A stretch of DNA of 64,000 bases, from assembly GCA_023920165.1 (NCBI GenBank), contig CP089280.1, positions 1,984,001 to 2,048,000 of the forward strand, written 5' to 3'. Position numbers and translations under genes: made by a program. The notes under the pieces were generated by a model that was given only the letters and a program-made list of their open reading frames with translations, was not told the origin of the DNA and searched no databases. Below, in pieces: positions 39,911 through 47,050 of the stretch (positions are counted from its first letter, which is position 1; every line of letters starts with the position of its first letter). This DNA comes from Curvularia clavata (lineage: Eukaryota).

Positions 39911-42342
39911 AAGTGTGTGGATTTACTTTGGGGCGGGGCATACAAGGCGTCTCTCTGATTAGTTACGATCTCAATGGGAAGGCTTTTCATCTTCTTCGGC
40001 TCACAGTACCCTTTGATATGGTACGAGGAGAAGCATGCACTTCAAAACAGCATTGCGACATGCTACCACGGCATGACCCAGGACATGAAAGGACAGAAGC
40101 CGTAGGAATGCAATGAAAAACGAGCCAAAAGCACCAGGACGATTTTTTTTGTTCGAGTGACGTAGGAGAGTGTGATGTCGATCTGGACTGAAGACCTTGC
40201 TTGCAGAATACAAGTGCATAGGCCGAACATGGGGGTTGGTGGTCACTTTGTCAACCCGTCGTTTTCCTTGGCAGGTCGGGTAGAAGACTGTATGGAGCGG
40301 GTATACCTCGTGGACTACCGTGATGCCCTGCGCCAAGCATCGAATGAGTACTGGCTAAATTGCTTTCTTTCACATGCTCGAGATCAAAGGCCAGCCATGT
40401 TGGGTGCTTTGTGATTACACTGCATTGTTGTTGCTGAGCGTAATCAGCCATAGGTTTGTCAACGCAGCCATCGGGATTGGGCCAAATATATTCGGCGAAT
40501 AGGACATTGGCTAGCACGACAATGACATAAGTAAAGACGCACATGGCCCATTCCGACGAGACGGAAAGACAAGTCGTTATCAGGAAGATCATGTGTTTTG
40601 TTCTTGGAGCCTGCTCGCTCTGCATAAGCCTGGCGAGGGGTCGGCTGAAGTGGCTGGCATGTTTGGGTGGGTGTCCAGACACCACCGTCGTACACAGAGT
40701 TCAGCTTGGCCCAACCTCAGCGCCCAGCGCGCGGTGGCCGAGTCGATGAGATGAGATCAGATGAGATGTGACGGTCAGTGTGTAGGCGCATGGATGCTGA
40801 TAAGGCAGTTTGCGCAATCTGTAGTCCTATTATACATGTACGTACGAATCGCCGTTAGCCATGGCATAGGGGGGCTACACCGGAGCCGCAATGGCGCTGG
40901 GCAGACAGGCTTGGCGGCGTCGCACGTCCGGCAGCCGGAGCTTCCAGAAGGAAAGGGTGAATTAACCTTGTGGGCTGGCAAGGCAAGCTTTTGGCTTGCG
41001 ACATGCGACGCTGGGCTGCTTCGGCCTTGTTTGTGGGGTCTGCCACGTTTTTATGGAGTGTAGAAGGTCTGACGACGACGCGCAAGAGACGGGGGAAATT
41101 CAAGGGGCGCACGACGACATTGATTTGGGTTTGATGTACAAGACTGGGCGTGCAACCAGTGAGCCCGACTGCAACACAAACAGGACAAAGTCCATGGGTG
41201 TTGCTGTTTCTTTGCGCCGAGAACAGACGCGTGTTTCTTGTTTTCTCGGGTTTCCCTCGCTACCGGGGCGCGCGCTGAGGTTCCGCGGCCTAGTCCGGCC
41301 CACTCAGTTCCTTTCTTATCCGCACACCTCAACCCAGCATCACACCGCCATGGAGCTGCCCTCTGTCTGTGCCTGCCCGGCCACCTTGCACAAATGTGCG
41401 CACACTCTCTCCAGCCCTGCCTGGCCGCTGCTCTCGAGCAACCGCCTAGTTTGCCATGATCCGTCCACGCATGGCCGCCAGCCGACGTGATTGGCGCGAA
41501 GCCGCCCTTTATCGATGCACCTGCGACACCGTCAGGTAGGGCACAAATGCGGTCTCATACATGCAACCACCGCGATCAGCATATTCGTGATTTCAACAAG
41601 GCAAAGAACCGGACAACGTGTCCCGCTGGCCGCAGCCCATTGAGGCAGTGCTCGCGAGGGCCATGACGGCGCCTCCCTTGGTTTTTCCTTACTCGTCTCC
41701 AATTGCGATTGGGGGCGGCGTACCGACTACTCAGGACAGCAGCTTGCTTAGGTAGATGCTCATATGATTCTGACTGTTAGCTCCCCCGGCCCATGACCCG
41801 CACTGCTACCCACGGTAGGTCGAAGCGCAACCAATTTCCTCCCGTCAGCCTGGGAAAGATTTTCAGGCCAGCACTATTTTAGTTCCCGTGCTTCAAATAT
41901 TTGGTCACCCCAGAACCTTTGTTTCGAGAATCCTCCTTTCACGCCCAGGTCAGTTCAAACAAGCTCGAAGGCTTTGCCTCGCTCCTTATAGCGACACAGT
42001 CGTGCTTCTGCACGCAGTGATTGGCAGTCTTCGGCTCGTTACACAAACTGAAAAAATCGCCAGCGCCACAACTGGTTTATAGCATTACACTTTCACCTGA
42101 CCTCCTCCTTTCACCTCCAATTCAGCTACTCGAGTCCCTCCCCTTGGCCATTGTCAATCAACAATAATCTCCTCGACGAACAAGACAACAAAGGAAAAAC
42201 CTTGCTCAAAAGGCCCCCTTCTCTTCGAGCATTTGCCGCCCCCGGATTCCAGGACCCACAACTACTGCCGACTGTCCCCGGAGGACCACACCACAGCAGT
42301 GAGCGGGACCATTACTTCTTCCATTTCACCACGACAACTAGC

Positions 42343-43245
42343 ATGGCGCCCAACCTCTTAGTTGCTACCCAAAAGGCCTTTGCGCCACACAAGTGGTTCA
42401 AGTCCAACAAGGCCGACCTATCCAGAGTTGTCGAGGAATGGACTAGTCCGGTACCTGGCCAATACGAGAGCATTCCCGGTCGAGGCTGGTTCTTGATCGC
42501 GACCCTCAAGGACGAATCAAAGCCAGAGCACAGTGAAAAGCCAACTGTCAGGGGATCTGATGGGAGGAAATACATCCTGTTGGAGAGGCCTATCCCCCTC
42601 AAGTATTCTCATGCACTCGGCCGCTACTTTCTAGAGCCAGAATTCGAAAAGCGCAAAAAGACGGTCATGATCAAGGACGACAAAGGCAAAGAAGTCCGAG
42701 CCGGTTTCTTCCGTGTTGACGATGTCGCCTGGGTCAAGTGTTGGGACGAGCACGACACTTTTATTCCAGGCAACGCCAATGGTGCTGCCGGCTACCAACG
42801 CTGGGTTCTGGACGCGCAAACCCACCAGTTCAGGCATATGCTCAAACGCGATGACCCAAATTACATCCGGTCTCGAAGAAACTCGCCTGCTCGCGATACC
42901 GACAACCGCAGCCAAGAGTCCGTCAGCACAGAGTTCCGCAGTAGTCGTCCTGGCAGCATCAAGAACGGCTTCAGCGTCGGTGGGAGCACCCGGACCAGTA
43001 GCATTCGCTACCAGCCCTCGACACCTACCTCCAACGCGCCAAGCCAACGGCCCTCTAGACAAAGCAGTCCCAAGCGCAGCGATAGCATTCCCCTCGAAGA
43101 GGCCAAAGCCGCACTCAGACGCTTAGCCCGCGAGCATGAAGAAGCCGCCGCCGCCCTGGCCCGTTCCCGCATGAAGCGCACTGACTCCAAAGACCGAGTC
43201 GAGCAAATCGAACGTGGTCGCGTTTCGGAGCGTGTCGGAAACTGA
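42343..43245 (+). CDS. Hypothetical protein (about 300 aa) with an aromatic N-terminal domain and a Ser/Arg-rich tail
   Basis: Long intronless ORF with coding-like composition. I recognise no domain. Confidence 0.7.
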   Translation: MAPNLLVATQKAFAPHKWFKSNKADLSRVVEEWTSPVPGQYESIPGRGWFLIATLKDESKPEHSEKPTVRGSDGRKYILLERPIPLKYSHALGRYFLEPEFEKRKKTVMIKDDKGKEVRAGFFRVDDVAWVKCWDEHDTFIPGNANGAAGYQRWVLDAQTHQFRHMLKRDDPNYIRSRRNSPARDTDNRSQESVSTEFRSSRPGSIKNGFSVGGSTRTSSIRYQPSTPTSNAPSQRPSRQSSPKRSDSIPLEEAKAALRRLAREHEEAAAALARSRMKRTDSKDRVEQIERGRVSERVGN

Positions 43246-44443
43246 ACAAAAAGTATTTTTGTATTCACTGTTGATTGGGGCCGTTTTCGGTACCCTTGCG
43301 GATATATATATGTCTATATATATATATGGGGCGTTACAGGTATGGGCAACAGGGGCGGATAAGAGAAGTCGGTGTGTACCTGTCTACACGTGACGTTGCT
43401 CTCTCTCTATATCTGCGCTCAAATCACGACGTCATGGCTTTTTTTCCCTTGCCTTTCTTTCTTGGTTCTAGAGGTATAGGTTTCTTGTTTGCTTGTAATA
43501 ACTACTCTTTGCATGCCTTGGTTTGGGCGGTTTTCACGATATCACATGAAGAGTTTCTTTGGTAGCGATACAGATGGGGTTTAGATTACACGGTACATTT
43601 AGCTCTCAAGAGCGTGGTTTTTTTTTCTTGCTAGACGTTTCTGCTTCTTGCGATCTTTCTGGCGTACAAGTTTTTTTTTCGACCCGGGCTGAACGCTAGG
43701 GGAGAAAGTCAAAAGTAGAGTTTTATACCCCTTCTTCTCTCCCTACACTTTGCGGTTCTTTTTTGCCTAGGTAGATGGAAGTAATGGGAAAGAAAAGTAA
43801 TGTTATCTTTGTGTATTTTTCGGACCCCCTGGATTCTTAGGGTCAGATAGAGGGATATCACATTGTCGGCTTGTAAACCCTTGAGTCCTTGATGATGTTT
43901 TCTTGATGCTAGCCAACTATGATGTTAAATAGGCGTGTTTCGCAGCCACCCTAGCCTCTCAGAATTGTATAGTGACGGGTTTTGCTTGGACATGTAGATG
44001 ATCAAAGTCACGTGTGTAGTCAGGTCACCTCGTTGCTCGTCTCTATCTGATGAATTGCATGGACACAACTAAGATAGTAAAAACATTTACTCTTCTATAC
44101 CCTAGCAACCGGACTAGAGTCCTATCTCCTGAAAGAAAAAGTGCTGTGAAGCGAAGCAACTTTTAAATTACAGGCTATTCAAAAGCACACAGACTTCACT
44201 CCACTATCAAAGCGCACACAGAGAGTATATAACATTCGAGAATGTATTTTTTCTATAACCCAAGAAAACCTATTAGGAAATCCGATCTAAAAGAATGAAA
44301 GTCTATTTTGCCCACACAAGCATTACCGAGAGAGCGTCGTCATGATGTCGTCTATCCTAACCCCTCTCCCACTCACCCACTTATGAAACGAGTGATAAAG
44401 TGGGTGAAATGAGCGAGGGGGCAACTCCCCAAGAAAAGATCGT

Positions 44444-47050
44444 TTACTCATCAGAGTCAACATCGTCCTCAGACTTCTCCTCTTGCTCCTTCTTCGCCTT
44501 CTCCTCCTGCTCTTTCTTCTCTTCCTCTTCCATTCCGTCACACATGCACTTGAACTTTCTGCATGATTTGTTAGTGTGTATTCTATGTAGCTTGTGTACA
44601 AATTCTTGTGTGAGGACTTACTCTTCAGTGATCTTCTTGCAGTAACCGCCAGTCCTCTGCGCGAGCTTGCAGACTGTCTGGCAGTTGCTAGGACCACTGT
44701 TCTTGGTGCATGGCTCAACTAGGCTTTACTGCGTGCGTCAGTTTAGAAGTGGGAAAGAGAAGCGGCTAAGTTGGAACACCTACACCTCGTTGAACTGACG
44801 CTTTTCGTTACCAGAGTCAAGTTCGTCGTCGTCATCTTCCTTGTTCTCGGCGTTCTGGGGACTGGTGGAGGGTTTCTTCTCCTTGGGGACGGCGTCCTGG
44901 TTTTGGGCAGCATCGGGGCTCAGGTTGTTGGGGTCGAGGGCGTCCTTGAGATCAGGGACTCCTTGGCGCTTGGCCATGATGCCGTACCAGTTCTCGCCGT
45001 GCTTCTCATTCTTGCCATCCTTGGACTCAGACTCGTGGTTTTGGCGAGACATGATACCGTACCAATCCTCGCGGTGGCCCTCCTTGGACTCCTTAGACTC
45101 CTTGTTCTCGCGCTTCAGGACGCCGTACCAGTCCTCGCCGTGCTTCTCGTTCTTACCATCCTTGGACTCAGACTCATGGTTTTGGCGAGACATGATGCCG
45201 TACCAGTTCTCACGGTGGCCCTCAGATTTCTTGGAGTCTTGGCCCTCTTCAGACTCATGGCTCTGGCGCTTGCGGTAGTTGAAATCGTCGTCCTCGTGGT
45301 GGCTCTCCTTAGACTCCTTTGTCTCTTTGGTCTTAGACTCCTTTTTATCGCTGTGAGGCTTGCTATCCTTGGAGTCCTTGGATTCCTTAGATTCCTTGTT
45401 ACCACGCCTCAGGATGCCGTACCAGTTCTCGCGGTGACCGTCCTTGGATTCCTTGTTCTCACCGTGAGACGCACCGCTCTTGGAGTCCTGGCCCTCTTCA
45501 GACTCATGGCTCTGGCGCTTGCGGTAGTTGAAATCGTCGTCCTCGTGGTGGCTCTCCTTAGACTCCTTTGTCTCTTTAGTCTTAGACTCCTTTTTGTCGC
45601 CGTGAGACTTGCTATCCTTGGAGTCCTTGGATTCCTTGGATTCCTTGCTACTCCGCCTCAGGACGCCGTACCAGTTCTCGCCGTGAGACTTGTCATCCTT
45701 GCCCTCCTTGGACTCGTGGTTCTGGCGAGACATGATACCATACCAATCCTCGCGGTGGCCCTCCTTGGACTCCTTGTTCTCGCGCTTCAGGACGCCGTAC
45801 CAGTCCTCGCCGTGCTTCTCGTCTTTGCCACCCTTGGACTCAGACTCGTGGCTCTGGCGCTTGTCCATGATACCATACCAATCCTCGCGGTGGCCCTCCT
45901 TGGACTCCTTGTTCTCGCGCTTCAGGACGCCGTACCAGTCCTCGCCGTGCTTCTCGTCTTTGCCACCCTTGGACTCAGACTCGTGGCTCTGGCGCTTGTC
46001 CATGATACCGTACCAGTTCTCGCGGTGGCCCTCCTTGCTGTCCTTGGAGTCCTTGTTCTCCCGCCTCAGGACGCCATACCAGTTCTCACGGTGACCGTCC
46101 TTGGACTCCTTGCCCTCAGACTCATGGTTCTGGCGCTTACCGAAAAAGCTGCCAAAGTCACCCTCCTCCGAATCACCTCCCTCCGAGTTTCCCTCCTGGC
46201 GCTTGCCAAAGAAGTTCTCTTCATCATCTCCCTCGGAGCCATTTTCCTGGCGCCTGTCGAAGAATTTGCCGTAGCCGTGGCCTTCGGACTTGTCCTGGTT
46301 GGAGTCTCCACTCTGAGGCTGTCCCTGGGGCTGCTCCTGGTGCTGCTCCTCATGAGGCTGCTCCTGGGGAGAGTGATCCTCAGAGGGGTGACCCTCAGAA
46401 GAATCATCTCCAGAAGGGGGGCCCTGGGAAGGTTCTTGTCCCTGCTCGTGAGATTCGCCCTCAGAAGGATGGCCCTCAGAGGACTGTTCCTCGGAAGGCT
46501 GCTCCTCGGTAGGACGGTCACCAGAAGGTGGGCCACCAGAAGGGCGACCTCCAGAAGGAGGGCCTCCAGAAGAGTGACCCTTGTGTCCGTACTCATCAAA
46601 GACGTCGAGATCAACGTCAAATTCCTTGCCAGGCCGGCGTCGCGAAAGCTTGGTCCGGTCAGTCGAGAACTGAAGCGCCGGAACAGCAGAGACTTGAGGC
46701 AGTTTAACAGCAGCAGATGATGATGATGATGGCGAAGGCGAAGGAAATGGCACCGGTGATGCTACAGCATCTTGCCTGCGAATAGGCAACTTGAGTGAAT
46801 CCAAGAGGCCTGCCTTGGGAGTGGCAGATGGCTTCACAGAAGAGGAAGAGGAATAGTGCGGCTCGGAACGGTAGCGTGCATCAGTGGGATGGTGCGGTTC
46901 AGCAGAGTACTGTGGCTCAGCAGAGTATTGCGGTTCGGCAGAGTACTGCGGCTCAGGGGTGTAGGCCGCCTTGGATGGCTCTGGACGGGTTGGCGCCGCA
47001 TTGCTCACGAGAGCAAAGGTGGACACAACGACGGCTGCGGTAAAACGCAT
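44444..47050 (-). CDS. Secreted Kex2-processed repeat protein (KEP) precursor with a C-terminal CS-alpha-beta defensin-like domain
   Basis: Signal peptide MRFTAAVVVSTFALVSNA. Twelve E[ND]WYG[VI][LM] units closed by KR, RR or R. Downstream exons 44723-44622 and 44558-44444 (intron gtaagt...ctaac...cag at 44559-44621) give C-x8-C-x3-C-x9-C-x9-C-x-C plus an acidic tail. The first intron's exact boundaries are uncertain. Confidence 0.85.
45731..46000. repeat. Apparently perfect 135-bp tandem duplication (45-aa two-peptide module) inside the KEP gene
   Basis: 45731-45865 reads identical to 45866-46000. Confidence 0.85.

Follow-up and report, generated by a model that had tools for sequence, protein, structure and literature searches.

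In a 64,000-nt stretch of Curvularia clavata DNA (assembly GCA_023920165.1, contig CP089280.1, positions 1,984,001 to 2,048,000 of the forward strand; hereafter the window, numbered from its first letter), a minus-strand gene extending from 47050 to about 44259 carries the coding region of a repeat-peptide precursor and, at its 3' end, a module with six cysteines (Cys). We found that this Cys module is real and transcribed, and that the polyprotein previously proposed for the gene, in which linear peptides and a defensin are delivered together, is not encoded by the observed mRNA. The observed mRNA encodes a 758-aa precursor, and the defensin module lies behind the stop codon in a spliced 3' untranslated region (3'UTR). 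On balance, we lean towards the explanation that the defensin part formerly shared the frame of the precursor, was recently uncoupled from it, and is now a leftover that is transcribed and spliced but silent. The features on which the argument is built are the following, given in the direction of transcription.

44784..47050, minus strand: exon 1, with the open reading frame (ORF) of the repeat-peptide precursor; RNA contig joints in three runs, X1, X2 and X9, place the end of the exon at 44784
44798..44965, minus strand: acidic spacer outside the repeats, 56 residues with KR (44803-44798) at the end, taken from the in-silico fragment list
44729..44783, minus strand: intron 1, 55 nt, with a gtaggt donor, a CTGAC branch-like site and a cgcag acceptor (RNA joint 44728/44784)
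44622..44728, minus strand: exon 2, whose first 10 nt complete the precursor ORF and whose codons from 44725 encode Cys1 to Cys4 in another frame
44724..44725, minus strand: AG of a hypothetical, computed alternative acceptor (aAG), 5 nt downstream of the CAG acceptor
44719..44721, minus strand: TAG at which the precursor frame of the spliced mRNA terminates, 97 nt upstream of the junction between exons 2 and 3
44559..44621, minus strand: intron 2, 63 nt, gtaagt..ctaac..cag (RNA joint 44558/44622)
44444..44558, minus strand: part of exon 3 in the Cys frame, with CxC (Cys5 and Cys6), a tail of about 30 residues rich in Glu, Lys and Asp, and TAA at 44446-44444
44259..44443, minus strand: remaining 3'UTR, with contig ends at 44259 (X1), 44295 (X9) and 44310 (X2)

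The transcript structure was derived from contigs of public runs. A search with positions 44250-45250 listed 22 runs, 12 with at least half of the sampled words; one run is on record as RNA, and for the others the type is a guess. Contigs of four runs were compared over 44200-44990, namely X1, X2 and X9, which come from three studies and carry two organism codes, and X14. Runs X1, X2 and X9 each gave a single contig over the 3' end of the gene, with 0 differing letters and with both introns removed. The joint 44728/44784, at which 55 nt are skipped, and the joint 44558/44622, at which 63 nt are skipped, both follow GT..AG on the minus strand, and each was present in all three of the runs that reach it. 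The shorter flank at these joints was 107 nt, the exception being X9 at the 44728/44784 joint (54 nt). As the joints lack the introns, the three contigs were identified as RNA-derived. These contigs keep the dominant path only, and rare variants are dropped from them. The 3'-end contigs stop at 44900-44904 (X1 and X2) or at adapter sequence at 44837 (X9), and a separate upstream contig takes over; the k-mer depths of the 3'-end contig and the upstream contig were 30.9 versus 3.0, 8.2 versus 2.3, and 13.4 versus 5.8. This step in depth near 44881-44934 could come from 3' bias, from a branch in the graph or from an internal start, and contig depth cannot be used to rank parts of the gene. X14, the run on record as RNA, spans 44828-44990 only, with the junctions outside its coverage. 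It is a root metatranscriptome, and its 178-nt contig is identical over 163 nt to the 3' coding part of the precursor, which shows that this part is transcribed in an environmental sample and is too little to name a habitat.

Comparison of the genomic with the spliced reading frames shows where the Cys module is separated from the precursor. As the original prediction had it, ATG 47050 opens a minus-strand ORF whose genomic reading runs for 756 codons to TAG 44782-44780 and ends in QFNEV, and two Cys-coding pieces lie downstream of it (44725-44622 and 44558-44447). The predicted intron between these pieces (44621-44559) is removed in the RNA contigs. In unspliced genomic DNA, the 756-aa ORF and the Cys exon stand in one common frame, and this is probably why the ORF track suggested continuity; the 55-nt intron 1 breaks it. 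The last base of exon 1, 44784, is the second of codon 756, and the first base of exon 2 is 44728. After splicing, the precursor frame finishes its Val codon, continues for two more codons and reaches the stop TAG 44721-44719, so that the protein has 758 aa. The Cys frame is offset from the precursor frame; it is preceded in exon 2 by TAA 44728-44726 and contains neither an ATG ahead of the Cys residues nor a signal peptide of its own. When exon 2 is entered at the CAG acceptor, all three frames are closed within 15 nt. These stops, together with the frame offset, make the Cys module untranslated 3'UTR in every transcript that uses the CAG acceptor, and in none of the three RNA assemblies crossing the junction does the module stand in frame behind the secretory signal.

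The idea that the Cys exons continue the precursor ORF in frame, a join for which the original prediction specified no intron, was thus not confirmed, given intron 1 and the TAG three codons past the junction. The idea of a polyprotein that co-delivers linear peptides and a defensin was not supported either, as all three RNA assemblies end the precursor at this TAG. The original prediction had looked to transcripts over 44540-44900 for the splice between the Cys exons, and had named as its refutation transcripts that never include these exons in frame. The splice of intron 2 was seen in this region, but the Cys exons were out of frame, which comes close to that refutation.

The translated part of the gene has the properties of a secreted repeat-peptide precursor. 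Judged by eye, its N-terminus is a hydrophobic signal-like segment. In-silico cleavage after KR or RR gave 19 fragments, and a W-Y-G-[IV]-[LM] motif was present in 12 copies directly ahead of basic sites (KR/RR); together with the signal-like N-terminus, these are the features by which Kex2-processed repeat proteins (KEPs) are recognised. Two smaller kinds of repeat were also found, with the ends FFGKR and FNYRKR. Two near-identical 46-residue units rich in Ser, Lys and Glu (45230-45660, minus strand) end in FNYRKR and are interleaved with the WYG units, and three units ending in F-F-[GD]-[KR]-R are located upstream. With WYG, FNYRKR and F-F-[GD]-[KR]-R units in one precursor, at least three peptide families would be released. 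No Pfam family was matched by the precursor ORF at E <= 10. Homologues of the precursor were likewise not found, in any length class searched, in a collection of 5.8 billion proteins queried with residues 560-756 at near lengths (1155 candidates), residues 690-756 at shorter lengths (4 candidates) and the whole protein (8000 candidates). A 657-codon stop-free frame lies antisense to the precursor ORF (44747-46720, plus strand), and several further long frames overlap it; these look like by-products of a repetitive, stop-poor composition rather than genes. At the precursor's 3' end, where the spacer comes after the last repeat, the KR of the spacer is followed by five residues and then by the TAG of the 756-aa ORF. 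By analogy with the propeptides of fungal defensins, this acidic spacer just upstream of the Cys module would be propeptide-like.

Several lines of evidence suggest that the Cys module is a defensin-type unit. Once intron 2 is removed, as verified by RNA, the six Cys residues of the joined frame show the spacing 8-3-9-9-1, exactly as in the predicted pattern C-x8-C-x3-C-x9-C-x9-C-x-C, and this is a CS-alpha-beta (cysteine-stabilised alpha-beta) framework. The framework of defensins, as given in the available text of PMC5234102, is Cys1..Cys2-X3-Cys3..Cys4..Cys5-X1-Cys6. The open piece of exon 2 (44725-44622) holds four of these Cys residues, including the CxxxC and the GGYC stretch, and the open piece of exon 3 (44558-44447) is directly followed by TAA. 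Intron 2 is in phase 2, splitting a codon after its second base, and falls into the c-loop between Cys4 and Cys5. A profile search had been proposed as a check on the defensin assignment; run with exon 2 by itself, a query of 35 aa that holds four of the six Cys, it matched Gamma-thionin (E 3e-4, 21.4 bits against a cut-off of 25.1), Defensin_like (E 0.02, 16.1 bits against 25.1) and Defensin_2, the arthropod defensins (E 0.024, 15.0 bits against 20.4). All three matches stayed below threshold, as expected from a query that is two thirds of the domain, and all three families belong to one Pfam clan. In a protein atlas, the exon 2 peptide was nearest to Gamma-thionin and then to scorpion-toxin clusters, with scores of 0.75-0.81 that are to be taken as a lead only. 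The predicted model of the exon 2 peptide alone had a predicted local distance difference test score (pLDDT) of 79.5, with a strand at 3-7, a helix at 8-24 and a strand at 28-32. Foldseek of this model, which covers a fragment and not the whole domain, gave no match to the PDB at E <= 0.001 (best E 1.5), and a wide VIA-align comparison of the same fragment model gave a best Z of 3.0, to generic beta-alpha-beta units; these outcomes speak neither for nor against a CS-alpha-beta fold, in which three disulfides pin a helix to a beta-sheet.

Codon usage likewise indicates that the Cys frame codes, or did so until recently. In a frame test for which six ORFs of the window with Pfam support served as the training set, the Cys frame scored +25.5 over 73 codons, and the other two frames scored -43.0 and -47.5. 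The 42-codon Cys core scored +3.6, where coding windows had a mean of 13.8 (standard deviation 7.9, n 71) and intergenic windows a mean of -11.2 (standard deviation 8.1), and only 1 of 114 intergenic windows reached the score of the Cys core. The GC content at third codon positions (GC3) was 0.69 in the Cys frame and in the precursor ORF alike. From its sequence, the Cys module looks like a transcribed coding unit of the CS-alpha-beta defensin type. The defensin-type assignment of the original prediction was therefore supported by the six-Cys framework, the sub-threshold matches within one clan, the phase-2 c-loop intron, the codon usage and the KR site behind a propeptide-like acidic spacer, and only the polyprotein context was not supported.

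These observations would be explained best if the gene is a secreted Kex2-type repeat-peptide precursor whose 3' module derives from a CS-alpha-beta defensin gene of a fungus. The putative order of the elements, namely an acidic propeptide-like spacer, a KR site, a six-Cys domain interrupted in the c-loop by a phase-2 intron and an acidic tail, would read as a precursor designed for the release of a defensin after the repeat peptides. The uncoupling would have been recent, and its cause would be either a minor alteration close to where exon 2 begins or the gain of a new acceptor. The defensin module would then persist in this organism as a silent, still intact leftover, and the working product would consist of linear peptides only.

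Several points weigh against the module being a silent leftover. No decay was detected in it, with the six Cys, the open frame, the splice signals and the codon bias all intact, and such intactness would result equally well from continued selection or from a very recent loss. A KR site that stands five residues ahead of the ORF end is most readily understood if a functional part follows. A minor in-frame isoform would stay unseen in contigs, which follow the dominant path. The label of X1, X2 and X9 as RNA is a guess, their RNA nature being inferred from the intron-less joints. Finally, searches of protein and metagenome collections returned no orthologue that would show an ancestral in-frame state or decay elsewhere.

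Two of these points, the lack of decay and the KR site, speak for a frame switch at tandem acceptors, the main rival, which we consider possible but less probable than a silent leftover. Here, the majority of transcripts would use the CAG acceptor and yield the precursor only, and a minority would use the AAG acceptor and yield the signal, the repeat peptides, the acidic propeptide, the KR site, the defensin and the acidic tail, in essence the polyprotein of the original prediction in the form of a minor or condition-specific isoform. One gene with one secretion signal would in that case deliver about a dozen linear WYG peptides and a disulfide-bonded defensin, an outcome that we put forward tentatively. 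According to our computation, the AAG acceptor would give a 60-nt intron and bring the Cys exons exactly into frame, and the 827-aa product would have 76 residues after the last KR, with the full six-Cys spacing. The single frame shared by the ORF and the Cys exon in genomic DNA also agrees with this, and the intact Cys frame, its coding-type codon usage, the KR site and the propeptide-like spacer would all be natural under ongoing selection. However, the AAG join (44784/44723) was present in none of the three RNA assemblies crossing the junction, in which rare variants would be lost.

The choice between the two acceptors was also considered from their position. From the branch A of CTGAC to the end of the acceptor, the distance is 9 nt for the CAG and 14 nt for the AAG. 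Comparison introns were inferred heuristically between Pfam-supported ORF segments of neighbouring genes, where five of eight pairs gave candidates, six in all; in five of these six the distance from the branch A to the intron end was 10-11 nt, and AGs at 2-7 nt past the branch were skipped. The observed CAG is thus well placed, close to the usual branch distance. AAG is an intrinsically weaker acceptor, and, being weaker and located downstream, it would be expected as a minority choice if it is used at all. The stop of the dominant form, 97 nt upstream of an exon junction, also speaks for the frame switch. A stop upstream of an exon junction has been linked to nonsense-mediated mRNA decay (NMD) in Neurospora, as stated in the available text of PMC7746235, citing Zhang and Sachs 2015. 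Such a stop position in the dominant form gives a hint that the exons behind it did not arise as UTR, and it is possible that the isoform ratio is tuned by NMD of the common form through its spliced 3'UTR.

Other routes into the Cys frame are improbable. A gtaacg donor at 44811, paired with a tag acceptor at 44720-44719, was computed to be in frame and to give 816 aa with the KR site deleted, and a -1 ribosomal frameshift just ahead of the TAG, after the Ala codon, would also enter the Cys frame. Against the first route stand a weak donor, an acceptor preceded by two other AGs and the loss of the KR site; against the second, no slippery heptamer is seen by eye at the site. The join at the 44811 donor was found in no contig of the three RNA assemblies, from which rare variants are dropped, and neither of the two in-frame joins, at the AAG or at the 44811 donor, appears in the contigs. 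Editing of the precursor stop was rejected as well: UAG to UGG stop-codon editing occurs in other ascomycetes, but readthrough at this stop stays in the wrong frame.

The least probable explanation is that the Cys pattern is a chance feature of the 3'UTR and was never a defensin. It could draw on the profile matches, all of which are below the gathering cut-offs, and on a sequence search of the PDB, in which nothing significant was found with exon 2, the CS-alpha-beta entries BmKDfsin3 and Lqh3 being matched at E 0.77 and 7.2. A loose CxxxC..GxC regular expression also matched three further places in the six frames of the window, so that the half-motif alone would not suffice. However, the strict degenerate pattern C-x8-C-x3-C-x6-GGYCKK matched the Cys exon as its sole place in the window and none of 100 shuffles, and the CxC comes into frame only after the RNA-verified splice of intron 2. 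With three families of one clan matching a 35-residue piece, an intron whose phase and position are as in fungal defensin genes, and codon usage that favours the Cys frame, a chance origin of the pattern is unlikely.

Searches for relatives of the module gave no usable match. In a phmmer search of 1.84 billion representatives, the exon 2 peptide had no true relative; none of the three matches at E <= 1e-3 was defensin-like, and they were discarded as spurious, as they are multi-repeat proteins without the Cys framework. The degenerate pattern of the Cys exon had a single metagenome match, on a prokaryote-like contig of 1568 nt (L001, 516-593); the match lies out of the coding frame of that contig and was set aside as chance. 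This chance match shows that the specificity of the pattern, about 43 bits, is borderline for that collection.

The gene is surrounded by fungal housekeeping genes, encoding PalH/RIM21, a cullin, SCC3/STAG, an Mvp1-type sorting nexin, DNA polymerase alpha subunit B, a dynamin-like GTPase and a fungal-type transcription factor. Closest to the precursor gene on its downstream side lies an open frame of 397 codons that matched no Pfam family (42052-43245, plus strand). Pfam analysis of the 54 ORFs of the window, which are stop-to-stop ORFs of about 100 aa or more, so that genes of short exons could escape, found no DUF3328, tyrosinase or other peptide-modifying enzyme. The Tyr-x-Ile/Val spacing of the WYG cores presumably resembles that of peptide cores of the ustiloxin/phomopsin type. 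A reading of the precursor as a dikaritin-type ribosomally synthesized and post-translationally modified peptide (RiPP) of the ustiloxin/phomopsin kind was nevertheless rejected, as no DUF3328 (UstYa-type) neighbour was found among these ORFs. With no modifying enzyme among the ORFs analysed, the precursor reads as a plain Kex2-type repeat protein and not as a clustered RiPP.

Either way, the gene would be informative. If the module is translated, even rarely, one precursor would combine Kex2 repeat peptides with CS-alpha-beta defensins, fungal peptide systems that are otherwise separate, under the control of a 5-nt splice choice. If the module is silent, a complete defensin domain would have been switched off by a change of splice frame and would still be transcribed and spliced; the gene would also be an example of ORF-track fusions that the mRNA does not support. 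A minor fusion isoform may exist, and the lack of decay fits a recent loss equally well.

Among known systems, the precursor resembles the KEPs. Like the KEPs surveyed by Le Marquer et al. 2019 (PMC6339444), whose pipeline, in the available text, applied a rule of at least four KR/RR fragments, it begins with a signal-like segment, and KR or RR closes each of its many short repeats; unlike them, it has no homologue in the protein collection. The word 'defensin' does not occur in the main text of that survey, and WYG motifs were found neither in the open-access literature searched nor in the text supplementary files of PMC6339444. In the parts of the open-access literature that were available, we found no description of a precursor that combines repeat peptides with a defensin; the papers that came up dealt with other subjects, such as an unrelated Cys-rich protein of a mushroom and plant constructs made by engineering.

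The Cys module itself resembles the fungal defensin-like peptides (fDLPs) of the micasin/plectasin kind (Wu, Gao and Zhu 2014, PMC4165938). According to the available text of that paper, genes of the micasin type have a phase-2 intron in the c-loop, and fungal defensins have acidic propeptides that close with one or two basic residues. The module shares with them the framework C..CxxxC..C..CxC and the phase-2 c-loop intron, and its Cys domain is likewise preceded by an acidic pro-region with a dibasic end. Unlike the fDLPs described there, it does not come with its own signal-peptide exon and stands behind a repeat-peptide region of about 750 residues, and, unlike micasin-type genes, it lacks a phase-0 helix intron (PMC4165938). 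Its long tail rich in Glu, Lys and Asp and its out-of-frame, untranslated position in the observed mRNA are further differences from fDLPs, as is the fact that sequence relatives of the module were not retrieved in the searches. We take the Gly-Gly-Tyr-Cys at Cys4 to resemble plectasin and insect defensins. Class II plant defensins have eight Cys and an acidic C-terminal propeptide, and this tail is a vacuolar sorting signal. The cationic CS-alpha-beta core of the module and its acidic tail of about 30 residues are presumably comparable in layout to these defensins of another kingdom.

Two-domain precursors of fungal defensins offer a further parallel. In the available text of PMC4165938, maglosin, beauvesin2, manisin and pochlasin2, as well as asosin, are such precursors, with two defensins and no repeat peptides as cargo. 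As in these, a single secreted precursor would here release more than one peptide once the spacer propeptide is removed; unlike in these, the partner cargo would consist of linear, Cys-free peptides, and the join is out of frame in the RNA.

If the module is indeed silent, it would be comparable with the pseudogenes of fungal defensins, such as pochlasin-pseu and the pyronesin pseudogenes, as far as these are covered by the available text of PMC4165938. The likeness is that a defensin-derived sequence is no longer expressed as a complete peptide. Unlike those pseudogenes, which have lost exons or Cys residues, the module described here is complete, transcribed and spliced, and it is disabled by its frame only.

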